DNA of 64,000 bases from Micavibrio sp. UBA2400 (GTDB lineage Bacteria; Pseudomonadota; Alphaproteobacteria; UBA2400). Positions 37,742 to 57,256 of this stretch are shown one piece after another. The stretch covers positions 5,454 through 69,453 of the forward strand of contig DDSC01000038.1 in NCBI GenBank assembly GCA_002343265.1, in the 5' to 3' direction. Made by a program: the position numbers and the translations under genes. The notes beneath the pieces were generated by a model. That model saw only the letters and a program-made list of their open reading frames with translations. It made no database searches and had not been told where the DNA came from. How positions within the stretch are numbered: position 1 is the first letter of the stretch; each line of letters begins with the position of its first letter.

Positions 37742-38814
37742 TGCATTGTCTTTACCTGACATTGGTACTTGTACTGCTGGCTCCCCCTGTTTGGGCGTGT
37801 AGTTGTCCGGATATCCCGCTCGCGGACAAGGTCAAGGCAGCGAGTTTCATATTTCAAGGTACTGTTGTTTATCCGCGACCGGATATGCCGCCTGAACAGA
37901 CATCGTTTCGGATTGATGCCCATCTGAAAGGGCGGGACGGTGCGTCGGCGAATATTCTTCGGCTATCTGTACATTCGCCCCCGGCTTGCGCCGCGACGTT
38001 CGAGCTGGGCAAGACGTATCTTGTCCTAGCCGAGGGGACTTATGAAAGCGGCTATACAACGGATGCCTGTCATAGTTTTCCAGCACAGATAACAGATGAC
38101 CCGCGAGCGCTTGAGGTGCGTGATTTACGCCTCAAGACAGGTCAATCCATTCTTCACGGAAATCAGATCGAAGTTCCTCAGTCCCGCCTCACACTTGAAA
38201 AAATCCGGACACAGGCGAAGACCTTCTACTTGCTTGATGATAACGAATTGGCTTTACGTCTTTACGTCACCGCTGCGGCGCGGTCCCACAACTCGCCTGT
38301 TGATTTATTGGGTCAGGGTCATGCTTACTTGCGTCTTATGATGGCAGATTTGGCGTTGCAGAGATTTGATGATGTGCTGGAAAAAGATAGCCAGCGGGCG
38401 CAGGCGTGGTCTGGACGCTATCAGGCACTCGCGCTGCTTGGTCGTTGGTCGGAGATCCCTGAGAAAGCGAATCTTTCCGGCCTGTGGCTTCGGTATGCCC
38501 GCATACCAGTAGTTCCAGTTGCTGCTGATTTCTCGACAGTCTGGTGGAGAGAAATTGATGCTGCCGGGTTGCACTTTAAGGATGTTTCGTTCCGCGGTGC
38601 GACGTTATCCGATGTAAATTTCTCTAAAAGCAACTTAGAGAATGTGGACTTCACGGAGGCTGTTTTGCACCGCGTCGATTTTTCAGGAGCTAAGCTCAGC
38701 GGTGTAAAATTGCCAAGCAATCTGAATACAATTATCTGGGACGAGACGACGCAGTGGCCAAAGGGCTTCGACCCGGCTATTCTGGCCATTAGCAGGCCGA
38801 GTCAGGCTAAGTAG
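37738..38814 (+). CDS. Secreted protein with an N-terminal TIMP/NTR-like domain, a central helical region and C-terminal pentapeptide repeats
   Basis: The signal peptide 'MMHCLYLTLVLVLLAPPVWA' is followed by a mature N-terminus 'CSCPDIPLADKVKAASFIFQGTVV'. Further Cys residues sit at mature positions about 64 ('PPACAATF') and about 91 ('TTDACHSFPA'), reproducing the TIMP N-domain C1-C70/C3-C99 disulfide spacing and the 'TCSFVAP' motif. C-terminal tandem pentapeptide repeats are 'LHFKDVSFRGATLSDVNFSKSNLENVDFTEAVLHRVDFSGAKLSGVKL'. Confidence 0.6.
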   Translation: MMHCLYLTLVLVLLAPPVWACSCPDIPLADKVKAASFIFQGTVVYPRPDMPPEQTSFRIDAHLKGRDGASANILRLSVHSPPACAATFELGKTYLVLAEGTYESGYTTDACHSFPAQITDDPRALEVRDLRLKTGQSILHGNQIEVPQSRLTLEKIRTQAKTFYLLDDNELALRLYVTAAARSHNSPVDLLGQGHAYLRLMMADLALQRFDDVLEKDSQRAQAWSGRYQALALLGRWSEIPEKANLSGLWLRYARIPVVPVAADFSTVWWREIDAAGLHFKDVSFRGATLSDVNFSKSNLENVDFTEAVLHRVDFSGAKLSGVKLPSNLNTIIWDETTQWPKGFDPAILAISRPSQAK

Positions 38815-38840: not shown

Positions 38841-39851
38841 ATGTCGATAACCCAAAAAATTCTGATGGGCCTACTGACTTGTGCCCTTCTGGCTGGGCTT
38901 TGGTATAGCTACGTCATGGCCATCCCGCGTGTAGCGGTAACACAGGTTGTACGCGGGTCGGCTGTTGAATTGGTGTATGCTACAGGAACAGTTGAACCTG
39001 CGGTTCAGGCCACGGTGTCCCCTGAAGTTAATGGGCGTATTGCAGAGTTCTATGCCCAAGAAAACGATATTGTTAACCTTGGTGGGCCGTTGGCTCGCCT
39101 ATTTGACGCGGAGCAGTACGCCGAAGTGTCAGAGTTGATGATCCGTGTGGCCAATGAAGAAACCGCTCTGCGGCGCGATGAAGATCTGCTCAAGCGAAAA
39201 GTCGGCAGCCGCGAGGAGTATGATAACTCAAAGTCTGCACTTGAGCAGTCAAAGGCTCGCTTGGCCGCCGCTCAAGTGCGCTTGCAACAGAGGACGTTAC
39301 GTTCTCCGATTTCTGGTGTTGTTCTCCGTCGTGATCATGAAATAGGCGAAACTGTAACGCCCGGTATGCGCTTGTTTGTGGTGGGACAGCTAAAGCCATT
39401 GCGCGTTACTATGGAGATCGATGAGGAAGATATTCCTCGTGTGCAGATCGGACAAAAAGTCTTATTAAGCAACGATGCCTTTCCGGAGCAGGTTTTTACA
39501 GCTGCCGTGAGTGAGATCACGCCTTTAGGTGACAGCAGTAGCAAAACTTACCGCGTGCGTGCGCAGTTGCCGGAAGAGACGGTATTGCCGGTTGGGATGT
39601 CAGTAGAGGCTAATGTTGTTTTAACAGAGAGAACGAATGCTTTGCTTATACCGGCAACCGCTATGCAGGATAGTCATGTCTATCTTGTGGGGTCCGATCA
39701 CCGCGTTAAAAAAGTATCTATAAAAGTAGGCTTAAGTGGAATTGAAAATATTGAGGTAATTCAAGGCCTGTCTGATGGGGATCTCATTGTGAGAGGGCCA
39801 TCTGTAGATCTGCGGGATGGGCAGCGTGTGAAAGTACGCCGGGAGCCATGA
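38841..39851 (+). CDS. HlyD/MacA/DevB-family periplasmic adaptor (membrane fusion protein)
   Basis: 336 aa with an N-terminal TM anchor, coiled-coil hairpin, lipoyl and beta-barrel segments ('VSPEVNGRIAEF', 'LRSPISGVVLRRDHEIGETVTPG'). A CTGGAG RBS is present. The stop overlaps the next ATG. Confidence 0.8.
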   Translation: MSITQKILMGLLTCALLAGLWYSYVMAIPRVAVTQVVRGSAVELVYATGTVEPAVQATVSPEVNGRIAEFYAQENDIVNLGGPLARLFDAEQYAEVSELMIRVANEETALRRDEDLLKRKVGSREEYDNSKSALEQSKARLAAAQVRLQQRTLRSPISGVVLRRDHEIGETVTPGMRLFVVGQLKPLRVTMEIDEEDIPRVQIGQKVLLSNDAFPEQVFTAAVSEITPLGDSSSKTYRVRAQLPEETVLPVGMSVEANVVLTERTNALLIPATAMQDSHVYLVGSDHRVKKVSIKVGLSGIENIEVIQGLSDGDLIVRGPSVDLRDGQRVKVRREP

Positions 39852-41098
39852 TCCTCCCGCTTGCCGCCCGTATTGCCTTTCGTCATCTGGTCTACCGTAA
39901 GAGGCAATCTCTTGTCTCCATCCTTGGTGTTGCTTTGGGGGTCGGTTTCTTTATTGCCCTCGCGGCCATGATGCAGGGGTTTCAAAGCTATTTTTTACAA
40001 ACTGTGGTCGATGTCTCGCCCCATATAATAATTAATGATGATTATCGGGCCCCGCTTCGGCAACCTGCTGAGGTGCACTATCCAGCAGCCATCTTGACTA
40101 TTCATGGCTTGAAGCCGAAGGAGGAACGACGGGGTATTCGTGGCTATGAGGCAATCACGAATTATCTACATGGGCTGCCCGGGATTCAGGTTTCACAAGC
40201 TTTGGAAGGACAGATTTTTCTGACTTTTGGCAGCACGGATCGCAATGCAACAGTGCAAGGCATTGTTCCGGCCGATGAGCGTCGGGTTATTAAGCTGGAT
40301 GATGATCTGATTGCAGGAAGCTTCGATAATCTTGAAACAGTTCCCAATGGGATTATCGTTGGTATCGGACTGGCGGAGCGTCTTGGGGCTGGCATGGGAG
40401 ACCGCCTGACTGCTGTATCGACATCCGGCGTCATAATGCAGGTCAAGATCGTTGGGCTCATTGAGACGGGTATTACCGCCATAGATCGCGGCCGTGCCTA
40501 CATGTTGCTCAAAAAAGTCCAGGTTTTACAAGGACTGAATAACCGGGTAAGTCGGATCAACATTCGGTTACCCGACCCCGAGAGAGCACAGGATTTAGCC
40601 TCCCAACTTGAGCAGAAATTCCGCTATCGAGCGGAGAGCTGGCAGGAGGCCAATGCCGGCATATTCGGTGTGTTTGTTGTTCAGAACATCGTCATGTACT
40701 CGACGGTTACAGCGATCATGATCGTGGCGGCCTTTGGTATATTTAATATCATTTCGACGATTATCCATGAAAAAGTCAAGGATATCGCCATTTTACGGTC
40801 GCTTGGCTTTTACGAAAAAGACATCCGGGCAATCTTTATTCTGCAGGGTGTCGCTTTAGGTTTGCTTGGCGCACTGCTGGGTTGGTTGGTCGGGTATGGT
40901 CTTACATCGGCGCTGGCCGCAGTTCGTGTAAATATCAAAGGCGAGATTAAAACCGACCATCTAATGATTCTCTGGTCTTTTAATCACTATCTCTTGGCGG
41001 CTCTGTTTTCCCTTGCCGCGGCAATAGTGGCAGCGTGGATACCCGCGCGCAAGGCGGCATCAGTGCAGCCGGTTGAGATCATCCGGGGTGTTTCATGA
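39848..41098 (+). CDS. ABC transporter permease, FtsX/MacB/DevC/LolC-like (4 TM with large periplasmic domain)
   Basis: 416 aa with an N-terminal TM 'LVSILGVALGVGFFIALAAMMQGFQSY', a roughly 220-aa periplasmic domain and three C-terminal TM helices with the FtsX-like motif region. ATGA coupling occurs at both ends. Confidence 0.8.
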   Translation: MILPLAARIAFRHLVYRKRQSLVSILGVALGVGFFIALAAMMQGFQSYFLQTVVDVSPHIIINDDYRAPLRQPAEVHYPAAILTIHGLKPKEERRGIRGYEAITNYLHGLPGIQVSQALEGQIFLTFGSTDRNATVQGIVPADERRVIKLDDDLIAGSFDNLETVPNGIIVGIGLAERLGAGMGDRLTAVSTSGVIMQVKIVGLIETGITAIDRGRAYMLLKKVQVLQGLNNRVSRINIRLPDPERAQDLASQLEQKFRYRAESWQEANAGIFGVFVVQNIVMYSTVTAIMIVAAFGIFNIISTIIHEKVKDIAILRSLGFYEKDIRAIFILQGVALGLLGALLGWLVGYGLTSALAAVRVNIKGEIKTDHLMILWSFNHYLLAALFSLAAAIVAAWIPARKAASVQPVEIIRGVS

Positions 41099-41766
41099 GT
41101 ACGCTACTGGAGGCACGAGGGCTTACCCGTATCATAGAGGGCGAGGTCTCGACCACCTTGATTGAGGATATTAGTTTTTCCATAGCATCTGGAGAATTTG
41201 TATCTGTAACGGGGCCTTCTGGTGGGGGCAAGTCATCCTTGCTATATTTGTTGGGTCTGATTGACCGGCCAACACGAGGTACCGTCCTGATAGAGGGGCT
41301 GGATACCGGCACGCTGGAAAGTGATGCGCTGGCACATTTACGCCTGACAACTCTTGGTTTTGTGTTTCAGTTTCATTTTTTGCTAGAAGAATTCACAGCA
41401 TTAGATAACGTTATGCTGCCCATGCGCAAGTTGGGGGTTCTGTCTAATCAGGCTATGATTGAGCGCGCATCGGAGCTGCTTGCTCAGTTCGATCTGGCGC
41501 CACACATTCATAAACGCCCCGGCCAGCTCTCTGGCGGACAGCGACAACGGGTCGCTATTGCGCGGGCACTCGCCAATCAGCCCAAACTGATTCTGGCGGA
41601 TGAACCGACTGGCAATTTGGATACCCGCAATGCAGACAGTGTCTTTGCAGCCTTTCGCGATATCGTAAATAATTTTAACGCTTCTGTTATGGTCGTGACT
41701 CACGACCCCGATCTAGCCGCAAGGGCAGACCGGCACCTGAAGATCATTGATGGCCATCTCGCCTGA
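41095..41766 (+). CDS. ABC transporter ATP-binding protein (MacB/LolD/DevA-type)
   Basis: 223 aa with Walker A 'GPSGGGKSS', the ABC signature 'LSGGQRQRVAIARAL' and Walker B 'LILADEPTGNLD'. Confidence 0.85.
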   Translation: MSTLLEARGLTRIIEGEVSTTLIEDISFSIASGEFVSVTGPSGGGKSSLLYLLGLIDRPTRGTVLIEGLDTGTLESDALAHLRLTTLGFVFQFHFLLEEFTALDNVMLPMRKLGVLSNQAMIERASELLAQFDLAPHIHKRPGQLSGGQRQRVAIARALANQPKLILADEPTGNLDTRNADSVFAAFRDIVNNFNASVMVVTHDPDLAARADRHLKIIDGHLA

Positions 41767-44146: not shown

Positions 44147-44749
44147 TTAGCCAGCGGTGGCTAGGCGTTCGGCCGCAAATTCCCAATTCGCCATGTTTTC
44201 AAGAAAGGCCTTCAGGAAGTCCGCCCGACGGTTTTGATAGTCGAGGTAATAGGCGTGTTCCCATACATCGCAGGTCAGCAGAGCATGCTGGCCCTTGGTA
44301 AGCGGAAGGTCGGCATTTCCCGTCTTGGTGACTTTCAGTTTGCCACCCTCTAGCACTAACCACGCCCAACCAGAGCCAAACTGCGTCAGACCGGCTTGCG
44401 TGAAGGCTTCCTTGAACGCTTCGATAGAGCCAAAGTCGGCCTTGATCTTGTTTTCCAGCTCACTGGGCATGGCTCCGCCACCCTTTGGCTTTAATGACTT
44501 CCAGAAAAAGTCATGATTCCAGATCTGGGCAGAGTTATTAAATAGGCCCGCTTTATCAGCATGGCCTGCGCTGTCCTTGATGATCTGTTCCAGCGTTTGG
44601 GAAGCCTCAGGCCTATCCTTGGTTAAATTGTTCAGGTTCGTCACATAAGTCTGGTGATGCTTGCCGTGGTGAATTTCCAGATGCTGGACCGACATATAGG
44701 GAACCAATGCATCCTTGGCATAGGGCAGGGGGGCGAGTTCAAACGGCAT
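44147..44749 (-). CDS. sodB: Fe/Mn superoxide dismutase
   Basis: 200 aa with 'HHGKHHQTYV', 'FNNSAQIWNHDFFW' and 'DVWEHAYYLDYQNRR'. Confidence 0.9.
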   Translation of the reverse strand: MPFELAPLPYAKDALVPYMSVQHLEIHHGKHHQTYVTNLNNLTKDRPEASQTLEQIIKDSAGHADKAGLFNNSAQIWNHDFFWKSLKPKGGGAMPSELENKIKADFGSIEAFKEAFTQAGLTQFGSGWAWLVLEGGKLKVTKTGNADLPLTKGQHALLTCDVWEHAYYLDYQNRRADFLKAFLENMANWEFAAERLATAG

Positions 44750-44804
44750 TAGTATCTCCTTGGTTGGCAGTCAAATTAGTGTGGTTAAGAAAATTGGCAA
44801 GTCC

Positions 44805-45710
44805 TTAGCGCCGCCGTGCCGCCAGCCAGCCGCGAAAATGGGCCAGAATTCGCGCGCGGCGCGATGTCCTGAGGTATCGCCTAAGGGGGTCATGCTGTCT
44901 CAATTGCGATAGTTGATAGTTGGCGAGGTATAGCAGGCGTGTGGCTTCTCCCACCATTCGAGGGTCAGCTAGCTGTTGCGGTAAATCGCGGGCGACATGC
45001 AAAAGCTGTTCGGTACGATCGAGAACGCGCTGAATGACGGCACGCACTGCCGGGCTACTCTTGCGTTCAACCAGTTGCTCGGGCGTACCGCCCGCCTCGG
45101 TGAACCAGTCCGTTGGCAGATAGCAGCGCCCATGTAACCGCCAATCCTGCCCGCAGCGCCGGGTCAGGCGCAGCAGGAGCAGACTAGCACACAGTGCATC
45201 CGTCGATCGCTGTAGCTCGGGCTGCTCAAGGTGATGCAATTGCAAAATGGCGCGGCCAATTGGCTCAGCGGCGTAGCGGCAGTAAAGCAGCAGATCTGGC
45301 CATGTGGCGCAGACTGGTCGGCTGATATCCCGTCGCGCTGCTTGCACAAGGCGCAGAGCCCACTGCGGATCTAGCCGCCCTTGTGCCTGTATCCGGAGCA
45401 GACGCAAAGCAGCAAGAGTAAAGACGGTTGGTTCCTGATCACCCGCCGGGAGCGATCCACCTAAAGCCAGTTCAATCCGCTCCAATAGGAAACCACGTGT
45501 TTCCTCTACAAAATCTGGTATGTCGGCGATGTGGCGGATCGCAGCCAGTGTATCAAAAAAGATCTGGATATCTGGGCGAACAAAGGGGGCGAAGAAGGAG
45601 GAAGCCACCAGTCCCGAAAAGGCCGAGTGATGAGCCGGGACAGCGATCTGTCGACTCGTTGCCGCAGACTGAAGTTTTGTAGTCGGAACAGGGGGTTGCT
45701 CTCGATTCAT
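44805..45710 (-). CDS. Squalene/phytoene synthase-fold (SQS_PSY family) protein with degenerate Asp-rich motifs
   Basis: 301 aa. 'YCRYAAEPIGR' matches the YxYxVAGxVG motif and 'RLHGRCYLP' matches the GRxYLP motif. The first DDxxD motif is reduced to 'RHIAD' and the second Asp-rich motif is absent, so the protein is probably non-catalytic. Confidence 0.55.
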   Translation of the reverse strand: MNREQPPVPTTKLQSAATSRQIAVPAHHSAFSGLVASSFFAPFVRPDIQIFFDTLAAIRHIADIPDFVEETRGFLLERIELALGGSLPAGDQEPTVFTLAALRLLRIQAQGRLDPQWALRLVQAARRDISRPVCATWPDLLLYCRYAAEPIGRAILQLHHLEQPELQRSTDALCASLLLLRLTRRCGQDWRLHGRCYLPTDWFTEAGGTPEQLVERKSSPAVRAVIQRVLDRTEQLLHVARDLPQQLADPRMVGEATRLLYLANYQLSQLRQHDPLRRYLRTSRRARILAHFRGWLAARRR

Positions 45711-46475
45711 TGCGGCATAATATGTCAGAAATTCCAGACTGGCGAGGTTATTATCTTACAGATATTCCAGCATATTCGCGATTATTGCCGTCATAGCGAC
45801 TCGGAGTCTTTTCTGGCTGCGCTTTTTCTGCCGGATCCCGGGCGCCATTATGTCTTTACTCTTATCGCACTTAACCATGAGCTAGCCGAAATAGCCAAGA
45901 AAGTTTATGAGCCGTTATTAGCGCAAATGCGCTTGCAATGGTGGCGGGAGCAACTGGAGGCCGGGGCACGGTCCAATTCTCCTGTTGTGCAGGCACTACA
46001 GGCTACAATCGAAGCACAGCCGCTCTCTCGTGAGTTGTTTTTGACGTTGATCGACGCCTATGGCTCAGCCTATACAGACGCCGTTCAGGATATAAGTTCT
46101 GATGATTTTTCTGCCATTCGCCAAGCCTATTGGTATTGCAAACTGGGTTTGGTAGGCCAAGCTTACACACCACAGATTAGCGATCTAATACAGCAGGCGA
46201 TCAGACTGGAATGCTGGGAGCGCAGTTGTTTGTCTGATATGGCGAGTATCCCAACTTCTATGGAGATTGAGGCTGAGCGGAATAAAGCGCGGCAACTCTT
46301 TCGGTACGCGCATAAAGCTGGATTCGGCCCACTCTTTGCTGATTTGGTTCTTCTGCGCTTACGTCTTGGGCAGTTACTGTCACCAAAGTGGCGAAAATGC
46401 CAGTCTGGCCAGCTATCCCCGAAGCAGCATCCGTGGCGTGGAGTCGCGCTGGTCTATGAATTAATACTGCGTTAG
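45696..46475 (+). CDS. Squalene/phytoene synthase-fold protein, NDUFAF6-like (second, divergently transcribed paralogue); start codon unresolved
   Basis: 'DYCRHSDSESFLAALFLP', 'RLQWWREQL' and 'YWYCKLGLVGQ' match conserved SQS_PSY/NDUFAF6 blocks. Asp-rich motifs are absent ('NHELAE' where ADDIxD is expected). The only upstream ATG (45722) is in the +2 frame. The in-frame TTG at 45696 was used provisionally, so a frameshift or non-canonical start is possible. Confidence 0.5.
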   Translation: MLSIHCGIICQKFQTGEVIILQIFQHIRDYCRHSDSESFLAALFLPDPGRHYVFTLIALNHELAEIAKKVYEPLLAQMRLQWWREQLEAGARSNSPVVQALQATIEAQPLSRELFLTLIDAYGSAYTDAVQDISSDDFSAIRQAYWYCKLGLVGQAYTPQISDLIQQAIRLECWERSCLSDMASIPTSMEIEAERNKARQLFRYAHKAGFGPLFADLVLLRLRLGQLLSPKWRKCQSGQLSPKQHPWRGVALVYELILR

Positions 46476-46506
46476 TATATTCAGGTCAGTCTGATTTGAG
46501 GTGTCT

Positions 46507-47181
46507 ATGCGTTTCCTTATCGTTCTCCTTTGTGTTTTTGTGGCTGGAACGACTTCAGCCAACGCGGCTGTGTCTCCTGAGGGCTTTTTTACGCGGGCGC
46601 AGCCACTTGTTATTCCTGTCTCTTCGGCCGACCCACCCTACTATACATCTCAAAATCCAGATCCGGTTACGAGCGGCCAGGCCGGGCAGTCCCCGTATGC
46701 ATTGCCGCGGGAGCCTTTGCCTGATGCCTTGTTAGAGCGCCAATTGACCGAGGCCATGCGACCGATGGTTAGCGCGGCTTGGGCGCGCCCAGCGGCTATT
46801 GGAGCGACAACAGCGGTTTATTTTACCCTGCGTGGTGCCAATAAACGGGACGATCGCTTGATTTCAGTTTCAACGCCTTGGGCCAAGACCGTTCAGGTGC
46901 ATGACACGATTATTGATGATAACGGCGTCGCGCGTATGCGGGAAATTGAAGGACTTCTGGTGAGCGCAAACGCTAAACTGGTGTTCGAGCCCAATGGCCG
47001 CCATGTCATGCTGATTGGCCTTAAGCGTAACCTGCGGCGCGGCACTATGTTCCCGGTGACCCTGACATTCAAGAATAGCGGTCCGATCCGGGCCATGGTC
47101 GAGGTGCGTGGACCGTCACCGCTTGAGGTTACCGGAGATGCGACCGAGGGTAGCTCCGACCCTCATCATGAGGGCCATTAA
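46507..47181 (+). CDS. PCu(A)C-type periplasmic copper chaperone with long N-terminal extension and His-rich C-terminal tail
   Basis: It has a signal peptide. The motif H-x11-M-x21-H-x-M ('VHDTIIDDNGVARM...GRHVM') matches the PCuAC Cu(I) site H(M)x10Mx21HxM. The C-terminus ends 'PHHEGH'. Confidence 0.65.
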   Translation: MRFLIVLLCVFVAGTTSANAAVSPEGFFTRAQPLVIPVSSADPPYYTSQNPDPVTSGQAGQSPYALPREPLPDALLERQLTEAMRPMVSAAWARPAAIGATTAVYFTLRGANKRDDRLISVSTPWAKTVQVHDTIIDDNGVARMREIEGLLVSANAKLVFEPNGRHVMLIGLKRNLRRGTMFPVTLTFKNSGPIRAMVEVRGPSPLEVTGDATEGSSDPHHEGH

Positions 47182-47190
47182 CACCGCCTC

Positions 47191-48531
47191 TTAGGCGGCT
47201 TGCGCAAGCTGGCACCAGTTCTGTAAGTCTGCAAGAGCGCGTTGACTATAGAGTTTCTTGCGCTCTCGTGCACCGAGGCGAGGCGGGACATCGGTCAAGG
47301 GCGGAAATAGGCCGAAATTTATGTTCATGGGCTGGAACGTCTCGGCATTCGCGCCCGTTGTAATGTGATTGAGCAACGCACCAAAGGCAGTTGTCAGCGG
47401 CGGAATTTGCTCATATCCAGCGGCAAAACGGCCCGCAAGCAATCCGATCGCGGCTGACTCAACATAGCCCTCACACCCGGTAATCTGCCCCGCAAAGCGT
47501 ATATGCGGCATAGCCTTAAAACGCAGAGTTGGATCCAGCAGTTTGGGGCTATTAAGGAAAGTATTGCGGTGAATGCCACCCAGACGGGCAAATTCGGCCT
47601 GCTCCAAGCCGGGGATCATGCGAAAAATGCGCTGCTGCTCGCCATACTTCAGTTTTGTCTGAAAACCAACGATATTATAGAGGGTGCCAAGGGCATTGTC
47701 TTGCCGCAGCTGAACCACGGCATATGGGCGCTTGTCCGAATGCGGATTGGTTAAACCGACTGGCTTCATTGGCCCATAGCGCAGCGTATCCGGGCCGCGC
47801 TCTGCCATGACTTCAATAGGCAAGCAGCCCTCAAAATAGGGCGTGCTCTTTTCCCATTCCTTGAACTCCGTTTTTTCGCCGGTGCAGAGGGCGTCAATGA
47901 AGGCAAGATACTGCTCTTTGTCCATGGCACAGTTGATATAGTCTTTACCGGTGCCACCAGGGCCTTCCTTGTCATAACGCGACTGAAACCAAGCTTTGGA
48001 AAGGTCAATGCTGTCGAAGTGGACAATTGGTGCGATCGCATCAAAGAAAGCCAGTGAATCTTCAGCGCTGGCCTTACGAATATCTTCCGCAAGCTCAGGG
48101 GTCGTCAGTGGGCCGGTAGCCAGGATACAGTTTTCCCACGCCGGTGGCGGGAGGATCTTCAATTCAAGCGGTGCAAAGGTAATCAGGGGGTGGGCCCGCA
48201 AGGCTGCCGTTACCGCTTGACTGAATCCATCTCGATCCACCGCGAGTGCACCGCCAGCGGGGACTTTATGACGATCCGCGATGGTCATGATAATCGAGTT
48301 GCAGCGGCGCATTTCCTCATGGAGCAGACCGACAGCGTTATAGTCCGCATCATCCGAGCGGAATGAATTGGAGCAGACAAGCTCAGCGCAGTTTCCGCTT
48401 TGGTGAGCTTCGGTCATCCGCAAAGGGCGCATTTCATGCAGAAGGACCGGGATCCCGGCTTGCGCGAGTTGCCACGCAGCCTCCGATCCGGCCATACCCG
48501 CACCAACAACATGAACAGGGGAGTGTGTCAT
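47191..48531 (-). CDS. trmFO: Methylenetetrahydrofolate--tRNA-(uracil54-C5)-methyltransferase TrmFO
   Basis: 446 aa with an FAD-binding N-terminus '[18 protein letters not shown]' and a GidA-like fold of the TrmFO size class. Confidence 0.85.
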
Positions 48532-48573
48532 GGCGCTATCAATACGCCATTTTTATAGGCAGAAGCAACAATA

Positions 48574-50175
48574 TTAACGCCCGGTGGCGCTAAACATTTT
48601 GCTGAGTTCTGAAGCAGACTGGAAGTATTTCTTGGTCTCGTCTTTGGCGATCATAAGCTCATCGGCGATGGTTTTCCCGGGTTCGATAGCCGGGATGGCT
48701 TTGCCACGCGCGATCAGGCGCTCGGTGTCACGTATGATTTTGCCCCAGATGCCGTTAATGATGTTTTCGTCACCGCGTACGAAGCGCATCGCCTGGGAGG
48801 CCTCAATCAGTAAGGTACACAGGCGGTCGGCATTTGCCTTCATTCGCTCGAAAGCTTCGCGTAATTTGGGGTCCTGTTCCAGAGTGTGATCAAAGTCCCA
48901 GCGCAAGCCGACCTGTTCGTCTTTGGGCTGCATCTGACGGATGATCTTATCAACCGGCTGCTTGGAACGGTTAACGGCAGACTCTACCTGAATACGAAGC
49001 AGGGAGAAGTCCTGAGCCTGCTCATACCATTTAAAGTCCTCAGCGAGCAATGTCATCTGATTCTGCATGGCTTTAATGGGTTCTGCCGCATCACCCAGAG
49101 TTGTGGCTTCGACCTCGGCCCCCTTGAAGATGGAGACCTCTTCAATGATTTCGCCTTTGGCATCATAGACGATTTTGGCCGGCCCCTCATCAGGCTGGCG
49201 GCTAATGACGCCATTTTCATACCACACTTCCAGCCAGCCTCCCTCTGGGGTTGGGCAGGCAACGGCGGGGGCACCCTCGCGGTGACGTTTGCCGTTGACA
49301 AAGTATTCCTCACCCCCATCCGGGCGGATAATGGCAGGACGTGAGCGGTTATGCAGAAGATTCTCGACCTGATCAGGCTGCGTCAGGTCAGGAGGTGGGC
49401 TCCCTTGTGCGTGGAGATAATAATAAACCACCCCGGTAGGGGCGAGGGCGAACTCCCCGATCGCCTGTGTACCAGCCATCAGACTTCCCATGTCTCGTTC
49501 AGCCGCAAGCTGATCGAAGGTACCATACCAACTATGTAGCGCGGCTTCCATCTGGCGGGTCATATGAAAGACCCGGTCCTGCGCTTCAGGCTCAAGGCTA
49601 TTGAAATTTTCCCGCATCATGCGTTTGGCGGCAATGATCTGGTTGGGTGTCGCTAAAAAGACGTGACGGTCCCAGTAATCGCGGTTGGCCATGCGCTGAG
49701 CCTCGGGTTGATAACGGCTCGGAAAAACCTGACGCTTAGGGCCGGGGTGAATAGAGAAAATCCGGTAGTCGCCGCTCTGGCGGCGATCCGGGCCACAGAA
49801 AAAAGTGATATCCCGAGTCTTTTTAAGCTGGCTTGGCGCAACAATGGCGGCTGAAACAATGGTTTCGCGGGGGCTGTCAAAATAGCGATAGACAGGAACA
49901 ACGACCGATTTTTCAGGCAGCTCGGAGACAGGAAGCAGGCAATCAAACCCAATCGGGGTGCCCGCATCGATCGTAATACACTCCACCTCAGCCGGACGTT
50001 TTTTTTCAACGTTCTCGTCATAGGCTTTTTTCGCTGCTTCATCGCACATTTTGAGCACGCGATTGACCAGTTGCGAGCTGGGCAGAAGGAATGCCGAACC
50101 TATGGTCAAGCCTGACAGGTCGCCCATAAGTTCGGCGCGAACAACATCATCTGTAACAGCACTGACATAACGCAT
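48574..50175 (-). CDS. Large hypothetical cytoplasmic protein (533 aa), unassigned
   Basis: There are no TM helices and no nucleotide-binding motif. The central segment 'YFVNGKRHREGAPAV...GGWLEVWYENGVISRQPDEGPAKIVYDAKGE' weakly resembles MORN/YwqK-type repeats. Confidence 0.45.
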   Translation of the reverse strand: MRYVSAVTDDVVRAELMGDLSGLTIGSAFLLPSSQLVNRVLKMCDEAAKKAYDENVEKKRPAEVECITIDAGTPIGFDCLLPVSELPEKSVVVPVYRYFDSPRETIVSAAIVAPSQLKKTRDITFFCGPDRRQSGDYRIFSIHPGPKRQVFPSRYQPEAQRMANRDYWDRHVFLATPNQIIAAKRMMRENFNSLEPEAQDRVFHMTRQMEAALHSWYGTFDQLAAERDMGSLMAGTQAIGEFALAPTGVVYYYLHAQGSPPPDLTQPDQVENLLHNRSRPAIIRPDGGEEYFVNGKRHREGAPAVACPTPEGGWLEVWYENGVISRQPDEGPAKIVYDAKGEIIEEVSIFKGAEVEATTLGDAAEPIKAMQNQMTLLAEDFKWYEQAQDFSLLRIQVESAVNRSKQPVDKIIRQMQPKDEQVGLRWDFDHTLEQDPKLREAFERMKANADRLCTLLIEASQAMRFVRGDENIINGIWGKIIRDTERLIARGKAIPAIEPGKTIADELMIAKDETKKYFQSASELSKMFSATGR

Positions 50176-50249
50176 GGCGATACTCCGACGCTCTAGAGTA
50201 CAGCCTAATGGTTAACAAAAACTAGCCAATTATTAAGAAATTTTCCTGC

Positions 50250-51833
50250 CTAATGGCTCACAGGCTTTTCGGCGCCCAAGCCTGTTTGTGCACGAATGTA
50301 CTGGGCATCAAACGCTTCGCGTTCCTGTTTAGCTGAGGCACTGTTGTCTGTTCGTGAAAAGAACCAGATGCCGAAAAAGGCAAGCGGCATGGAGAACAGC
50401 GCCGGATACTCATATGGGAATAGGGCCTGATCAAAACCAAGTACATTCACCCATATGGTTTTACTCAAGACCATCAGAATGATTGTCGAGAGTAGGCCCA
50501 AGGTCCCGCCAATAACCGCCCCGCGCGTTGTCATTTTTTTCCAATACATGGACAGGAGCAAGACTGGGAAGTTGGCGCTCGCGGCAATAGCAAAGGCCAA
50601 GCCTACCATAAAAGCTACATTCTGGTGTTCGAATGCAATACCGAGCAGCATGGCGAGGATACCAAGGAGCACAGTCGCCCCCTTGCTGACACGGATTTCT
50701 TCTGCCTCACTGGCTTGTCCGTGGCGGAACACGCGTGCGTAGAGATCATGTGAGATCGCTGATGCTCCGGCCAAGGTTAGGCCGGAGACCACAGCCAGGA
50801 TTGTGGCAAAGGCCACAGCCGAAATAAAGCCCATGAGCACATCGCCGCCGAGCGCATGCGCCAGTTGAATCGCGGCCATATTACTACCGCCAAGCAGGGC
50901 ACCTTTTTCGTCAGTGTACGCGGGTGAACCCGTGAGGAATATGATGGCGCCAAAGCCGATGATAAAGGTAAGAATATAGAAGTAGCCAATAAACCCGGTT
51001 GCATAAAGAACCGAGCGGTTGGCCTGTTTGGCGTCTTTCACGGTAAAGAAGCGCATCAGGATATGAGGCAAACCCGCTGTACCAAACATAAGCGCAAGTC
51101 CAAGAGAGACGGCGGAGATCGGGTCTTTAACCATGCCGCCCGGCTCCATGATGGTGCTGCCTTTAGGGTGTGTAGCCGTAGCCTGGGCAAATAAGGCTGT
51201 CATGTCAAAGTTGAAGCTAGCCAATACGGAGAGGGCAATAATTGTGGCCCCCGCCAGCAGAAGGACGGCTTTGATGATCTGCACCCATGTTGTGGCCAAC
51301 ATGCCGCCGAACATGACATACGAAATCATCAAAACACCAACGATTGCAATAGCGCTCGTGTAGGGGAGGTGGAACAGAACCTCGATCAGTTTACCCGCCC
51401 CAACCATTTGTGCAATCAGGTACAGGAGAACGGTCGCGAGGGACCCACAGGCAGCCAGAACACGGATTGGTTTTTGCTGAAAACGGAAGCTGACAACATC
51501 CGAGAAATTGTAACGCCCTAGATTTCGTAACGGTTCTGCAATCAGCAAGAGGATAATGGGCCAACCAACCAGAAAACCGATGGAATAAAGCAAGCCATCA
51601 AAGCCGGATAAAAACACCATGCCGGAAATGCCGAGAAAGGAAGCCGCCGACATGTAATCGCCAGCGATGGCTAGACCATTTTGAAATCCTGTGATTTGAC
51701 CGCCGGCAGAGTAGAAATCACGTGTAGTGCGTGTGCGCTTGGCCGCCCAGCGGGTAATCATCAGGGTTACGAGAACAAAGCCAATAAATATCAACGCAGC
51801 CGTTAGATTAAGTTGGGTAAAAAATGTGCTCAT
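50250..51833 (-). CDS. actP: Cation/acetate symporter ActP (SSS family)
   Basis: About 527 aa with 13-14 TM helices in the sodium:solute symporter family. The ATG at 51831-51833 was chosen, lying 2 nt after the DUF485 gene stop. Confidence 0.8.
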
Positions 51834-51835
51834 GA

Positions 51836-52141
51836 TCAAAGCCCCCGGTCATGGATAGTGGCTACGAGATCTTCCAGATATCGGTTCGCATACCAGACAT
51901 AATAGGCCGTCATGCCGATCGTCAGCAGGATCAGGCCTAGCCCGGCTAGTATGCCAACACTGGTGATGCCATCGCCAAGGCGGATGGCAAGAAGGTGGGG
52001 GGTGTATCCAACCATCAGGATAAAGCTAAAATAGGCCGTCAGAATTATGGCTGTAAGCAGCCAGCCAACACGGCGACGACGGCGCAGAAGCTCCTGATAT
52101 TCGGGCATGGCTTTGATATCAGCGATCGGTATTTTAGTCAT
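51836..52141 (-). CDS. DUF485 (YjcH-like) small membrane protein, canonical ActP partner
   Basis: 101 aa with two TM helices, encoded immediately upstream of actP. Confidence 0.7.
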
Positions 52142-52291
52142 AAGGCCCCCAGTCTGGCTTGACCCTGTTCGTTATATTTATCGCTTCATCATATCAGCTC
52201 CGGACAGCCACTTCAGGCAAAATCGTCGCTGCATTGCATTGTGCAATGTGCGCTAAAATGACGATAAATCATTGATAATAAATCTGTACGT

Positions 52292-52717
52292 TTATAGAGA
52301 TCTAGTTGGGCGTGGGGCTGGCGGTAAGGCGGCAGGTGGATAAAATCCATTTCTAATTGTCGGGTCGAAGGGGGCAGGATTGCTGCCGGCTTGTGCCATT
52401 TGAAGCATTCTCGACATGTGTTGGCTATAGCGAGCCTGATCTCGCGCTAGCAAGCCAGTGAAAGCAGCGAGCGGTGCCAGAATTGGCCCATAGGGAGTTG
52501 CAAGTGCAGCAAATGTCACAAGGCATGAGGTAGTGCCAAATGCGCAGGCACTTCTCTGAGCCTGTTGGCGCTGAAGAGTAAGATGCCATTGCGCTGGCTT
52601 CTTGCCGTACCGACGCACATTCTCACGGTAGATGCGTTCCACTTCTTTGGGCTCAAGGTAACCCTCAATCGGGTAACGCAGAACTGCAAGCAAACCCATA
52701 AAAATCTCCTTCGCCAT
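52292..52717 (-). CDS. Hypothetical protein (weak)
   Basis: 141-aa ORF with a poor RBS. It lies between the actP operon and uvrA. Confidence 0.25.
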   Translation of the reverse strand: MAKEIFMGLLAVLRYPIEGYLEPKEVERIYRENVRRYGKKPAQWHLTLQRQQAQRSACAFGTTSCLVTFAALATPYGPILAPLAAFTGLLARDQARYSQHMSRMLQMAQAGSNPAPFDPTIRNGFYPPAALPPAPRPTRSL

Positions 52718-52755
52718 AAAAACTGCTGCAGATTAGGCTCGGGGACAAACTAAGA

Positions 52756-55623
52756 TCAAGCTTTTTTGCGGGCAGAAGTCTTAACGGCTTTATTAATGCC
52801 CAGCAGCGGGGCCAGATATTGCCCGGTATAACTGCGCTTGATCTCACAAATAGCCTCCGGGGTGCCTTGGCCGACCAGTTCGCCACCGCCATCACCACCT
52901 TCAGGGCCGAGATCAATGATCCAGTCAGCGGTTTTGATAACCTCAAGGTTATGTTCAATCACCACCATCGTGTTGCCATTCTCAACTAGCTCATGCAAAA
53001 CCTCGAGCAACTTGCGGACATCTTCGAAGTGCAGGCCGGTGGTTGGCTCATCAAGGATATACAGCGTACGGCCGGTGGCGCGTTTGCTCAATTCCTTGGC
53101 CAGCTTGATACGCTGGGCCTCGCCGCCGGAGAGGGTCGTTGCTTGCTGACCGATATGAATATAGCCAAGGCCAACCCGGCGCAGGGTTTCCAGCTTCTCA
53201 TGAATGAGGGGCTGTGCCTTGAAGAAGGCAGCACCTTCTTCCACAGTCATTTCCAGCACATCGGCAATGCTCTTGCCTTTGTACTGAATTTCCAACGTCT
53301 CGCGGTTGTAGCGCTTACCGTGGCATTCCTCACAGGTTACATACACATCCGGCAGGAAGTGCATTTCTATTTTGATAGTGCCATCGCCCTGGCAAGCCTC
53401 ACAGCGACCGCCCTTGACGTTAAAACTGAAGCGGCCGACATCATAGCCGCGGGCCTTTGACTCGGGTAGTCCGGCGTACCAGTCGCGGATGGGAGTGAAT
53501 GCGCCCGTATATGTCGCCGGATTACTGCGCGGGGTACGACCAATCGGTGACTGATCGATATCAATCACCTTGTCGAGATGCTCGAGACCCAGAATTTCAT
53601 CATGTAGCCCGGCATGTTCACGTGCTCCGTTCAGCTTACGAGCAAGGGCCTTGTAGAGGGTGTCGATAACAAGGGTAGATTTACCACCACCCGAGACACC
53701 CGTCACACAGGTGAGGGCACCGACCGGTATCTTGGCCGTCACGCCTTTAAGGTTATGCGAGCGGGCGTTCTTGATAGTGATCTGCTTGGCGTTCTTGGTC
53801 TCGCGGCGCTTTTTCGGTAAGGGAATACTGCGCTTGCCAGAGAGATACTGACCGGTCAGAGATGCCGGGTTCTTCATGATCTCGTCCGGTGTGCCTTCGG
53901 CAATAATTTTTCCACCGTGAATACCGGCACCGGGGCCCATATCCACCACATAGTCAGCGGTGCGGATCGCGTCTTCATCGTGTTCAACCACAATCACGGT
54001 ATTGCCGATGTCGCGCAGACGCTCCAGTGTTGCCAACAAGCGATCATTATCGCGCTGATGCAGACCAATGGACGGCTCATCCAAGACATACAACACGCCG
54101 GTCAGGCCGGAGCCAATCTGTGAGGCTAGTCGAATACGCTGGCTCTCACCACCCGATAAGGTGCCGGAATTGCGGTTTAGGGCGAGGTACGACAAACCAA
54201 CGTTATTGAGGAAGCCGAGACGCTCATTGATTTCTTTAAGAATACGCGCAGCAATATCATTATCTTTTTTGCCTAGTTTTTTGGGTAGGCTGGTAAACCA
54301 GTCTCCTGCAGCAAGAATGGAGAGCGAAGACACCTCCGCGATATTTTTCCCACCGACCTTGATGGCCAGAGCTTCCGGTTTCAGGCGGGCACCGCCACAC
54401 TCATCACACGGGTGCTCGGCCATAAACCGCGCCAGATCCTCGCGGATCATGTTGCTGTCCGTTTCTTTGTAGCGACGCTCGAGGTTGGGAATCACGCCTT
54501 CAAACGGGCGACGGCTTTCATAGGTGCGATGGCTGTCTTCAAATTTGAGGGTCACATCCTTGCTGCCGGTGCCCCACAGGATCATTTTTTGCAGTTGTTC
54601 AGGCAGTTCGCGCCATGGCGTGTGTGTGCTCGCCTTGAACTGGCGGCAGAGGTTTTCCAGAATCTGCAAAGCATGCATGCTCTTGGTACCAGCCCACGGC
54701 GCAATCGCTCCCTCATGCAAGCTGAGCGTGTCTACCGGAACCACCAGCTCAGCGTCGAAAACCTGCTTAAACCCAAGACCGTCGCAGATCGGGCAAGCGC
54801 CGTGCGGGCTGTTAAAGGAGAAGAGGCGAGGTTCAATTTCCTCAATCGTAAAGCCGCTGACCGGGCAGGCAAATTTGCTCGAGAGTGTCAACCGATCTCC
54901 ACTCTCGGCTTTTTCGACGATAATCAGCCCTTCGGTGAGTTTAAGGGCGTTCTCAACACTATCGGCTAGGCGGTTGCCCAGATCATCTTTCAAAACCAAG
55001 CGATCAACCACAACTTCAATCTCGTGTTTCTTCATCTTGTCGAGTTTGGGGACTTCGTCGATTTCGTAAAACGTTCCATCAACTTTTACCCGCTGATAGC
55101 CTTTGGCGCGTAGATCCAGCAACTCCTTGCGGTATTCTCCCTTACGGCCACGAACAATGGGAGCGAGAATATACAGCTTGGCTCCGTCCCCAAGGGCTTT
55201 GATACGATCAACCATCTGGCTAGGCGTTTGGGCCTCAATGGGTAGCCCGGTCGCTGGCGAGTAGGGCTTGCCGATGCGGGCATAGAGCAGACGCAGATAG
55301 TCGTAAATCTCGGTCACGGTGCCAACTGTCGAGCGTGGATTGCGGCTGGTGGTTTTCTGCTCGATTGAAATAGCGGGCGAGAGACCTTCGATGGTGTCGA
55401 CGTCCGGCTTTTGCTGCATCTCCAGGAACTGACGGGCATAGGCCGACAGGCTCTCGACATAGCGACGCTGGCCTTCTGCATAGATCGTATCAAAGGCGAG
55501 GGATGATTTACCTGATCCTGACAGGCCGGTGATCACCACCAGTTGATCACGTGGCAGATCAACGCTGATGTTCTTGAGATTGTGCTCACGGGCGCCCCGT
55601 ATTGATATAGCTTTGTTCGACAT
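52756..55623 (-). CDS. uvrA: Excinuclease ABC subunit A
   Basis: 955 aa with two ABC modules, '[10 protein letters not shown]' and '[10 protein letters not shown]', and zinc-finger Cys clusters. Confidence 0.95.
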
Positions 55624-55809
55624 TGTCTAAAATCCCATGCATTTAAGGTCGAAAGAGTAACAGGATATGCTGCGTTTTTGACTTAAAGTCGAGTCAAAAA
55701 CAGATGTCTTGAATTCATCATTAAACTGGAAAGATACCATTTCTGATGCTATAATCACTGCAGTGTAGTCGGACTAAAATCCGAGCTGTCGTTTGCGGGA
55801 GTGCCGGTC

Positions 55810-56700
55810 ATGACACATACTGTTTTTGCTTTACGCACACTGTTTTTTGCAGTTGTTGGTCTGGCGGTCGTTACTGCGGCCTCAGAGAGCGTGGCTCAGA
55901 CCGTGTCTATTCCTTACGAGCAAAAATCCGGGGGTGTTACCGCGCCAACTGAACCGAGCCCCGCAGCGCCAGATGTCATTTCGGTAACGCCAACTGCCCC
56001 TGCGGTTGCCGCCAAACCGATTGTAAGCGCACGCCCATCTGTTGCACCGAATATCGCAACCAATAGCGAAAGCCGTGCGCCAGCGATTTTGTCAACTGAC
56101 CCCGTTGTCCCCGGTATGACTCCCGAGGATGTTGCCCGGACGCGTCAAGCCTACGATGAACTCGTGGCGCGTAACCCGGCTGCTTCAGGTGAGGGGCCGT
56201 ATGCCCTATTACAATCTCTGCGACCGCGGCGTGAACTCCAAAAGAGTATTTCGGATCGGGTTCGTAAGGCTTGCAAACTGGATTATTTTAATGTGTTGAT
56301 CCCATTTGATATGCCTTACAACCTGACCGCCTTTGCCAACCTCAAGAACAATGGCGCTGATGCAATTGTCGGTGCCATTACATCCGTCTGCAATGACAAG
56401 GATGTTCGCAAAGGCCTCCTGCTGGGTGTCGGTATCTTCACGATCAATCAGGCTGGAGGGCAGGCTACACCCGTAGTGAGTAATGGTAACCTCAGCGTTT
56501 CATTATCTTACGATTTTCAGAATCCAGCGCCTTTCCCACAGAGTTTGTTGCAGGCTCAGTTGCTAAAAGCATTTCGCGTCTCGGATGATAAAGCCGTCCC
56601 AGTGTACCAGCGTTATGAAAACTCGGACCAAGACAAAATGTACGAGAATTTTGCCCAAGAACTGGGCTATAAGCCAGGTAACGCTGATAAAGTCCAATAA
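55810..56700 (+). CDS. Hypothetical secreted protein with Pro/Ala-rich linker
   Basis: It has a signal peptide 'MTHTVFALRTLFFAVVGLAVVTAASES' and a low-complexity linker followed by a globular C-terminal domain. It lies between the divergent uvrA and ssb. Confidence 0.45.
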   Translation: MTHTVFALRTLFFAVVGLAVVTAASESVAQTVSIPYEQKSGGVTAPTEPSPAAPDVISVTPTAPAVAAKPIVSARPSVAPNIATNSESRAPAILSTDPVVPGMTPEDVARTRQAYDELVARNPAASGEGPYALLQSLRPRRELQKSISDRVRKACKLDYFNVLIPFDMPYNLTAFANLKNNGADAIVGAITSVCNDKDVRKGLLLGVGIFTINQAGGQATPVVSNGNLSVSLSYDFQNPAPFPQSLLQAQLLKAFRVSDDKAVPVYQRYENSDQDKMYENFAQELGYKPGNADKVQ

Positions 56701-56781
56701 ATACGGGCGCAAATTTTTTCCACGACAGCTGCCCGATTTCGGCTAAAGTGCTCCTGTGCAACCCCCAACAGGTGAGAGACT

Positions 56782-57240
56782 ATGGCTGGCAGTGTGAATA
56801 AGGTTATTCTCGTGGGCAATCTCGGGCGCGATCCGGAAGTGCGCAGTTTTCAAAGTGGTGACAAGGTGTGTAACCTTTCAATCGCGACCACCGAAAGCTG
56901 GAAAGATAAGGCCACTGGTGAGCGCAAGGATAAGACCGAGTGGCACCGCGTCTGCATCTATAATCAAAATCTGGTCAGTGTGGCCGAGCGTTTCCTGAAT
57001 AAAGGGTCTCGCGTCTATATTGAGGGCAAGCTGGAAACCCGTAAGTACACAGACAAGGATGGCGCGGAGAAATACACTACCGAGATCGCTCTGCGCAATT
57101 TTGGTGGCGAGCTTGTTCTGCTGGATGGTCGTGGGGGTGGCGAGTCAGCCGTGCCGATGGAGGATATGGCGGCCAGCCGTCCGGCTTTAGCGGGCGCCGG
57201 TGGCAAGAGCTCTACTCTGGACGATGATATTCCGTTCTAG
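56782..57240 (+). CDS. ssb: Single-stranded DNA-binding protein
   Basis: 152 aa with an OB-fold N-terminus 'NKVILVGNLGRDPEVR' and an acidic C-terminal tail 'DDDIPF'. The uvrA-ssb divergent arrangement is classic. Confidence 0.9.
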   Translation: MAGSVNKVILVGNLGRDPEVRSFQSGDKVCNLSIATTESWKDKATGERKDKTEWHRVCIYNQNLVSVAERFLNKGSRVYIEGKLETRKYTDKDGAEKYTTEIALRNFGGELVLLDGRGGGESAVPMEDMAASRPALAGAGGKSSTLDDDIPF

Positions 57241-57256
57241 TTAGCCTAGGCCGTCT

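Follow-up and report, generated by a model that had tools for sequence, protein, structure and literature searches.

The genes hpnD, hpnC and hpnE encode a three-step route to squalene, and Azospirillaceae carry shc and produce hopanoids (PMC12583986). It has also been reported that the two DxxxD motifs are missing from NDUFAF6, NDU1 and the orthologues of both (PMC8007014). Here we analyse a stretch of 64,000 nucleotides from Micavibrio sp. UBA2400 (contig DDSC01000038.1 of assembly GCA_002343265.1; hereafter the window), in which relatives of these two protein families are encoded head to head. Two divergent open reading frames were confirmed, one on the minus strand at 44805-45710 with 301 amino acids (aa), the other in a plus-strand frame that is open from 45531 to a stop at 46473-46475. 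An initial annotation, made from the sequence alone, had described them as a divergent pair of the squalene/phytoene-synthase fold, and this is correct: the minus-strand and plus-strand proteins match Pfam PF00494 (SQS_PSY) with 106.4 and 64.9 bits (cut-off 26), the latter over profile positions 2-103 only, and the residue strings quoted at the time (YCRYAAEPIGR, YWYCKLGLVGQ, RLQWWRE, SFLAALFLP, RHIAD and NHELAE) are all present.

Taken as a whole, it is probable that the pair consists of an NDUFAF6 orthologue and a divergent relic of hpnC that turned into a pseudoenzyme after the loss of hpnD and hpnE (hpnDE). The divergent placing of an NDUFAF6 orthologue and hpnC is conserved in Alphaproteobacteria. 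In hopanoid-producing relatives, the Azospirillaceae and allies, hpnC heads an hpnC-hpnD-hpnE operon that precedes sodB, and in the lineage of the window, which is uncultured and whose nearest genomes are labelled Micavibrio, it is left stranded with the NDUFAF6-like gene on one side and sodB on the other. The protein keeps its helical bundle and many pocket residues (RRD, YCR, GR, D171 and GRCYLP), and has lost the aspartates that bind Mg2+ and diphosphate, several of them to arginine, such that it would no longer ionise presqualene diphosphate. Its present role would then be non-catalytic, in isoprenoid or lipid binding or in scaffolding.

The stranded HpnC-like gene

By family, fold and position, the minus-strand gene is identified as a positional orthologue or derivative of hpnC and not as an NDUFAF6-like gene, since TIGR03464 (HpnC) is its best family, HpnC structure 4hd1 its best fold match and the place of hpnC its genomic position. 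The TIGR03464 model is the top NCBIfam match at 127.2 bits, about half the equivalog cut-off of 250.45; other HpnC-like proteins without adjoining hpnDE (orphans) reach 93-121 bits, and HpnC of Azospirillum brasilense (locus L035) reaches 249.3. In a sequence search of the Protein Data Bank (PDB) 4hd1 was best with an expect value (E) of 7e-18. An AlphaFold2 (AF2) model of the protein, with a mean predicted local distance difference test score (pLDDT) of 88.3, is all-helical and again finds 4hd1 first with Foldseek (E 4.5e-9, template modelling score (TM) 0.74); residues 1-29 of the model are mostly disordered. Compared with HpnC (hydroxysqualene synthase, which turns presqualene diphosphate into hydroxysqualene; TIGR03464; 4hd1; the HpnC-HpnD-HpnE pathway), the minus-strand protein is therefore alike in fold and genomic slot, but has half the cut-off score, lacks both Asp-rich motifs, the ENFPVAS segment and adjoining hpnD and hpnE, and adds a disordered N-terminal extension of ~30 aa.

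In the MAFFT alignment of the family, DDIAD of HpnC from loci that also carry hpnD and hpnE (hpnDE-linked HpnC) pairs with R59-H60-I-A-D63, and QDxxxD pairs with R184-R185-C-G-Q-D189. The pairwise phmmer alignment to 4hd1 has another register, in which DDLGD pairs with A62-D-I-P-D66, and the acidic triad of motif 1 is broken in either register. The earlier statement that both proteins lack intact Asp-rich motifs is confirmed, by the family and 4hd1 alignments for the minus strand and by NHELAE for the plus strand. The same replacement is seen throughout the clade of the window, where motif 1 reads RAVAD, RVIAQ or RTVAE in other members, the former acidic position corresponding to R59 is Arg in 76% of orphans and the third acidic position may be D, E, Q or N. 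At motif 2 the Gln is changed to Arg (R184) in 83% of orphans and the first Asp to Arg (R185) in 62%, and the last Asp is kept in 97%. When the 75 alignment positions with at least 90% conservation in hpnDE-linked HpnC are considered, 33 are kept in at least 80% of orphans, among them R126-R127-D128, W137, Y143-C-R145, P150, G152-R153, D171, D189, R195 and P199; Y197 is retained in 76% of orphans. Among the positions that the orphans have given up are K.EN in the N-terminal K.ENFPVAS, the Arg that precedes motif 1, the two leading Asp of that motif and, in motif 2, the Q-D.

The orphan hpnC is under purifying selection. Ratios of nonsynonymous to synonymous substitution rates (dN/dS) were taken from pairs within the orphan clade with usable dS, the window's own branch being saturated, and were 0.14 for L093-L094 (dS 0.67), 0.07 for L004-L003 (dS 0.66), 0.10 for L083-L085 (dS 0.09) and 0.20 for L004-L086 (dS 1.1). 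Values of 0.07-0.20 make the orphan look like a pseudoenzyme rather than a pseudogene. It is most likely, as judged from the residues kept and lost, that the stranded HpnC is a pseudoenzyme in which the cavity is kept and the site for Mg2+ and diphosphate is gone. Small subunits of heteromeric prenyl diphosphate synthases are pseudoenzymes or non-catalytic subunits of prenyl-synthase folds. Compared with such subunits, the orphan is alike in that the fold is kept, the Asp motifs are lost and selection is maintained, and differs in that a catalytic partner or heteromer is not evidenced here.

The genomic setting in relatives points to how this state may have arisen. Loci were collected through the HpnC-like family, 80 from genomes and 8 from metagenomes, with 5 further loci for the closest homologues, and the nearest in genome collections came from metagenome-assembled genomes (MAGs) labelled Micavibrio sp. 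and Bdellovibrionales. An order that we call the Azospirillaceae type is shared by Azospirillum, Skermanella, Niveispirillum, Rhodocista and allied MAGs; in it trmFO and, after intervening genes, the NDUFAF6-like gene are followed divergently by hpnC-hpnD-hpnE-sodB, and the HpnC of all these loci has (A/G)DDIADD and QDxxxD intact. The downstream genes of A. brasilense L035 score 280.4 bits for HpnD (cut-off 278.6) and 377.8 bits for HpnE (cut-off 283). The window's clade (the window, L003-L005, L083-L090 and L092-L095) has the same neighbours, with hpnD and hpnE missing, sodB directly after hpnC and the motifs replaced, and no match to HpnD or HpnE at E <= 1 was found in the 64-kb window or in any of 17 clade loci. 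The linkage of trmFO, the NDUFAF6-like gene, the HpnC-like gene and sodB is kept from Azospirillum to the window's clade. Nearly all loci with intact motifs on a long enough contig carry hpnD downstream, and hpnE too where the sequence allows (the exception is L075), and none of the motif-less loci has downstream hpnD or hpnE. In L079 (681-2145, a Rhodospirillales MAG) sodB directly follows hpnC without hpnDE, motif 1 is half-decayed (AHGIADD) and motif 2 is intact (RDCRSD), so that by its sequence this locus looks like an intermediate stage in the loss of the motifs and of hpnDE. A DW...GRCY signature after motif 2 is common to the orphans and to NDUFAF6-adjacent HpnC only, and does not occur in HpnC of the Acetobacteraceae, Sphingomonadales, Caulobacterales and Hyphomicrobiales examined. 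It is mainly because of synteny and this common signature that we derive the orphan from an Azospirillaceae-type hpnC.

It is improbable that the orphan protein has remained an enzyme, or binds diphosphate specifically, by an altered chemistry in which R59, R184 and R185 take the place of the Mg2+ cluster. The recurrence of Asp-to-Arg changes at both motifs across the clade (62-83%), the strong purifying selection and the many pocket residues, with D189, that are invariant in orphans would all suit such arginine-for-metal chemistry. However, hpnD, which would supply the substrate, and the downstream hpnE are absent from the locus, the N-terminal ENFPVAS is lost, and the third acidic position of motif 1 varies between D, E, Q and N within the clade. 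The initial annotation had suggested a search for hpnC, hpnD and shc elsewhere as a sign of genuine squalene synthesis; no homologue of hpnD or hpnE was found in the window, which also holds no isoprenoid-metabolism gene other than the pair and no nuo genes. Orphan HpnC and NDUFAF6 are not mentioned by Santana-Molina 2020, and literature searches combining Micavibrio with hopanoids, or NDUFAF6 with alphaproteobacteria, gave nothing relevant. The motif-less HpnC is a previously unremarked subfamily, kept by selection after hpnDE became absent.

The NDUFAF6-like gene and its neighbour

The plus-strand gene is classed by profile comparison as an NDUFAF6 orthologue, closer to NDUFAF6 than to the HpnC-like profile. 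An alignment of the plus-strand protein with its syntenic relatives and database homologues (A4) was compared by HHalign with nine vertebrate proteins named NDUFAF6 in their source (A5), which had been reached by a search with a human NDUFAF6 sequence, the matches bearing out this query at 95-100% identity. A4 matched A5 with a probability of 99.94% and E 5.3e-37 over 244 columns, and matched the HpnC-like family (A2) with a probability of 94.5% and E 7.9e-8. The top NCBIfam match is HpnD, at only 51.7 bits against a cut-off of 278.6. At the position of the first Asp-rich motif bacterial relatives read AFN(L/H/Q)E(V/I/L)A, and the region of the second is deleted or degenerate in the plus-strand protein. 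As NDUFAF6 orthologues have been reported to be motif-less (PMC8007014), the absence of DxxxD here is the ordinary condition of the family, which by nature has neither the motifs nor catalytic activity.

Within RLQWWRE, the block best conserved across the family, R61, L62, Q63 and W65 are invariant in A4. The best AF2 model is a complete helical bundle of pLDDT 79.6 (the other four score 59-64) and matches CrtM-like folds with E ~1e-3 and TM 0.64; a PDB sequence search gave one spurious match only and no NDUFAF6 structure. The NDUFAF6-like proteins of the window's clade have 219-247 aa, compared with 281-284 aa in aligned Azospirillaceae orthologues, and the clade without hpnDE also has an NDUFAF6-like protein that is shorter by ~40 residues, around the second-motif region. 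Compared with NDUFAF6 (C8orf38, a mitochondrial complex I assembly factor needed for the ND1 module), the plus-strand family aligns end to end and likewise lacks DxxxD. The window protein differs from NDUFAF6 and its bacterial orthologues in lacking a canonical start and in being the fastest-evolving member seen.

The initial annotation had taken both proteins for NDUFAF6-like members, which is upheld for the plus strand and has to be withdrawn for the minus strand. That the two genes are paralogues of the non-catalytic NDUFAF6 type is highly improbable: intact Asp motifs are missing from each product and each matches PF00494, but the minus-strand family A2 aligns to A5 with a probability of only 55% and E 1.2e-4, against 99.94% and E 5e-37 for the plus-strand family, and the minus-strand gene has HpnC as its best family and stands in the position of hpnC.

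The adjacency of the two genes has a history of its own. Loci of the Acetobacteraceae type have sodB immediately beside the NDUFAF6-like gene and divergent from it, and then uvrA-ssb-gyrA (L097 4228-5810; L098 4303-5744 and 6601-10744), and the window keeps the same large-scale order at 44147-60853. Since sodB adjoins the NDUFAF6-like gene in Acetobacteraceae, the deeper linkage would be that of these two genes, with hpnC(DE) between them only in some lineages; on the gene orders compared, the linkage of sodB with the NDUFAF6-like gene is older than the adjacency of hpnC. A functional coupling drawn from the adjacency of the NDUFAF6-like gene and hpnC is weakened by the Acetobacteraceae-type sodB neighbour, and a functional partnership of the two proteins is possible but unsupported. 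There is a slim prospect that the motif-less HpnC has gained a new, specific function under selection, possibly as a metal-independent binder of isoprenoid, quinone or diphosphate with Arg in place of the Mg2+ cluster, and perhaps working with the NDUFAF6 orthologue; if true, the compact co-regulated pair would be a tractable bacterial handle on the biochemical activity of NDUFAF6.

Elsewhere, at a distance of a few kb from the NDUFAF6-like gene and next to secDF, there is a gene of DUF498/PF04430, at 7084-7461 (-) of L004, where it scores 84 bits, and at 3680-4057 of L099, where yajC is also present. The complex I assembly factor NDUFAF3 belongs to DUF498/PF04430, and there may be a cluster of assembly-factor homologues.

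Start sites and the putative shared control region

The HpnC-like gene probably starts at the conserved ATG 45710, and the public call at GTG 45608 (267 aa) would be 34 codons too short. The ATG and an N-terminus of the form M..(E/G/K)Q are conserved in relatives; in L003 and L086 stops stand two codons upstream of the ATG and the frame opens only there; and over the first 32 codons pN is below pS. A promoter scan found TCGCCA-17-TATTAT on the minus strand, ending at 45717, which puts the predicted transcription start at about the A of ATG 45710, such that the HpnC-like mRNA would be leaderless. An AT-rich TA..AT box lies 7-15 nucleotides (nt) from the ATG of this gene in 9/9 loci compared. 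TAATATG itself occurs in four of the nine (the window, L003, L004 and L086) with variants in the other five, and exactly 33 nt separate the ATG of the HpnC-like gene from GAGG in the window, L092, L083, L093 and L094. Both genes would be driven from this shared control region of ~50 bp.

The Gln5 codon (CAA) in the otherwise variable and disordered N-terminus of the HpnC-like protein is the antisense of a conserved TTG, and codon 5 may be under regulatory constraint as the -35 element of the divergent promoter. Several genes of the window have no Shine-Dalgarno motif, among them the gene of a sigma-70-family factor at 12739, trmFO and uvrA (12714-12741, 48531-48556 and 55623-55648); at least the first of these carries an AT-rich box resembling a -10 element, a few bases ahead of its ATG. 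This organism may make frequent use of leaderless mRNAs.

For the plus-strand gene the initial annotation had reported no in-frame ATG. This fails to the extent that ATG 45630 is in frame, and stands in that no canonical codon is found at the orthologous start: there is no in-frame ATG, GTG or TTG between 45697 and 45926, the interval in which ~65 examined orthologues start. When the start Met of each orthologue was picked as the nearest Met at least 55 residues upstream of the QWW motif, the distance from start to QWW was 59-64 residues in ~65 orthologues, with two outliers at 74 and 83. In a gapless alignment on Y.R..DS..FL, ATT 45750 coincides with the start codons of L094 (ATG) and L093 (GTG), and ATC 45753 with that of L092 (ATG). 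GAGG stands 5 nt before ATC 45753, the neighbouring PCuAC gene is spaced alike (GAGG, 5 nt, ATG), and 5-7 nt is the commonest spacing among window genes with a Shine-Dalgarno motif. Initiation would then be at low level, from near-cognate ATC 45753 or ATT 45750, after a retained promoter and GAGG. Near-cognate initiation is suggested by these alignments and spacings, and we put it forward tentatively, as the best supported of the start models though with somewhat less than an even chance; whatever weight is left after it, silencing of the gene and the annotated start, both considered below, falls to TTG 45696 or other start routes. As a primary model TTG 45696 was rejected: the initial annotation had offered it as a possible start, and it is conserved in most close relatives (L005 excepted) and is the antisense of the neighbour's conserved Gln5 codon, but stops follow it in L092 and L005, which use a downstream ATG or GTG.

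A reading that is unlikely but deserves the most serious attention among the alternatives takes the NDUFAF6-like gene for a recent pseudogene, silenced when its start codon was lost and with a frame not yet disrupted. The canonical start is missing at the orthologous position, the Pfam match is limited to the N-terminal 100 profile positions, and the divergence of the protein and its L091 differences, given below, count in favour of this reading too. Against this, a frame of 241 codons has no stop or frameshift despite very high divergence, and by a rough estimate several stops would be expected had that divergence built up untranslated. The N-terminal block and a C-terminal PWRGVALV motif are kept, as are the promoter box, the 33-nt spacing and GAGG; the best AF2 model is a complete helical bundle (pLDDT 79.6, the other four at 59-64); and clade relatives of the gene have dN/dS of 0.09-0.25.

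Several observations nevertheless weigh against the explanation of the locus that we consider probable. The window NDUFAF6-like protein is the most diverged in its clade, with 23-31% identity compared with 35-60% among the others; for the HpnC-like neighbour the excess of divergence over its relatives is slight. L091, a strain with 99.6% identity, differs by 5 substitutions, all nonsynonymous and all in the NDUFAF6-like gene, although 5 nonsynonymous against 0 synonymous is not significant alone (P ~0.27), two of the differences are at a contig end and this comparison has too few differences for a selection test. The divergence and the L091 substitutions fit a gene whose constraint is relaxed or whose decay has begun. 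Starts at ATC or ATT are uncommon, and the conservation of GAGG may reflect its place within the neighbour's -35 and not a role in ribosome binding. For the HpnC-like protein, acidic D63, D66 and D189 remain and Arg stands for Asp, so that altered catalysis or diphosphate binding is possible; the loss of squalene synthesis holds for the locus only, and hpnD, hpnE and shc could lie outside the 64 kb; and the neighbour-joining tree is midpoint-rooted, with a long-branched orphan clade. The five differences of L091 fall in the alignment of its positions 3-431 with window 46047-46475 and none in the adjacent 706 nt, and the two near the contig end are possibly errors.

Somewhat less likely than silencing of the gene is that the public annotation is right, with the NDUFAF6-like gene starting at ATG 45630 (281 aa), the HpnC-like gene at GTG 45608 (267 aa) and a divergent gap of 21 nt between them. 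No stop interrupts the frame from ATG 45630 into the gene, AAGG stands 8 nt upstream of this ATG, and the gene calls of four sources (NCBI, JGI, ENA and Logan) use it. However, it lies 102 aa before QWW, compared with 59-64 aa (outliers up to 83) in ~65 orthologues; the 40 aa thereby added read antisense to the N-terminal part of the neighbour and show no conservation among relatives; the conserved neighbour start ATG 45710 would give a head-to-head overlap of 81 nt with a gene from ATG 45630; and the conserved -10 box is downstream of 45630, upstream of which the scan found no promoter-like site. Both public gene models at the locus are probably mis-started on this comparison with orthologues, the NDUFAF6-like one being ~40 codons too long. 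On L001, L002 and L096 the starts of the public calls were apparently chosen to avoid a head-to-head overlap.

The initial annotation had offered, as the other possibility, a +1 shift from the out-of-frame ATG 45722, by sequencing error or in a pseudogene. The start region (45640-45830) has the same bases in the ENA and Logan assemblies, and over 6,804 nt no base of the JGI contig differs from the window; identity in three other public assemblies argues against a sequencing or assembly artefact. The out-of-frame ATG recurs in L003, L004, L086 and L088, and in all four an in-frame ATG of the locus itself follows 8 nt further on. A frameshift from ATG 45722 was therefore rejected, as that ATG belongs to a -10-like box (TAATATG) conserved in relatives with their own starts and the sequence is identical in four sources. 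A pair of genuine HpnC and HpnD enzymes was rejected on sub-cut-off scores, missing Asp motifs and the lack of hpnD and hpnE in the window. Neither a frameshift, for which ATG 45722 is at least the ATG closest to the expected start, nor ordinary HpnC and HpnD enzymes, for which the top NCBIfam match of the plus-strand protein is HpnD, can be given much credence, as the former is contradicted by the identical bases and the conserved box and the latter by scores of 51.7 against 278.6 bits (HpnD) and 127 against 250.45 (HpnC) and by the absent Asp motifs.

Genomic setting and significance

The window has a G+C content of ~54%. The pair lies in the local order gapA (-), a 180-aa hypothetical (+), sodB (-), the HpnC-like gene (-), the NDUFAF6-like gene (+) and a PCuAC copper chaperone gene (+), beyond which follow trmFO (-), a 533-aa hypothetical (-), a sodium:solute symporter gene (-), uvrA (-), ssb (+) and gyrA (+). 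A simple scan found no promoter-like or terminator-like site in the 55-nt gap between hpnC and sodB, and sodB is probably co-transcribed with the orphan hpnC, to judge from this arrangement. Coordinates of the features discussed are collected in Table 1.

Table 1. Features of the divergent hpnC-like/NDUFAF6-like locus, in window coordinates
Feature	Position	Strand	Remarks
sodB (Fe/Mn superoxide dismutase)	44147..44749	-	Pfam Sod_Fe_N and Sod_Fe_C; 55 nt 3' of orphan hpnC
Orphan HpnC-derived protein, 301 aa	44805..45710	-	Probable start ATG 45710; Pfam SQS_PSY, TIGR03464, fold match 4hd1
Degenerate second Asp-rich motif RLTRRCGQD, residues 181-189	45144..45170	-	NHxQDxxxD in hpnDE-linked HpnC
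Degenerate first Asp-rich motif RHIADIPD, residues 59-66	45513..45536	-	(A/G)DDIADD in hpnDE-linked HpnC
Compact bidirectional control region	45696..45747	.	Putative function of its elements
TTGCTC, -35-like for plus-strand gene	45696-45701	+	16 nt upstream of -10 box; below scanner threshold
CATAATATG, palindromic -10 element (putative)	45716-45724	.	Conserved box in relatives
Out-of-frame ATG proposed as frameshifted start	45722..45724	+	Within conserved -10-like box; frame ends at TAG 45794-45796
TCGCCA, -35-like for minus-strand gene	45745-45740	-	Promoter scan
GAGG, Shine-Dalgarno-like	45744-45747	+	Conserved spacing
NDUFAF6-like protein	45750..46475	+	Candidate start supported at ATT 45750 (241 aa) or ATC 45753 (240 aa)
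NHELAE, first Asp-rich motif position	45873..45890	+	Aligned to AFNVELAQ of vertebrate NDUFAF6
RLQWWRE, most conserved family block	45930..45950	+	Aligns to MRMQFW of NDUFAF6

Some further features of the window were noted. The 533-aa protein (48574-50175, minus strand) has no Pfam match and recurs in L005 (54% identity) and L092, again beside trmFO; its family may be restricted to the window's clade. A 2486-aa frame without Pfam match at 30281-37741 (+) is followed by a pentapeptide-repeat protein at 37738-38814 and then by a three-gene efflux set of MacB/RND-adaptor type at 38841-41766. The class II (B12-dependent) ribonucleotide reductase encoded at 4429-8259 (-) has the unusual length of 1276 aa and a C-terminal TSCPD domain, and its residues 346-407 include a sub-threshold TACO1/YebC-like stretch inside the barrel domain that may be an insertion.

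The locus offers a clean natural example of how an enzyme turned into a pseudoenzyme once the partners in its pathway had gone, in which the apparent intermediate L079 and the purifying selection can both be seen. Automated annotations name these proteins "hydroxysqualene synthase", and the evidence presented here argues against that name; recognition of the motif-less subfamily should therefore be useful when the capacity for hopanoid or squalene synthesis is deduced from hpnC matches. The NDUFAF6-like gene may depend on a near-cognate start codon, and its synteny with sodB, and in some genomes with DUF498, provides a modest lead on bacterial complex I assembly factors.

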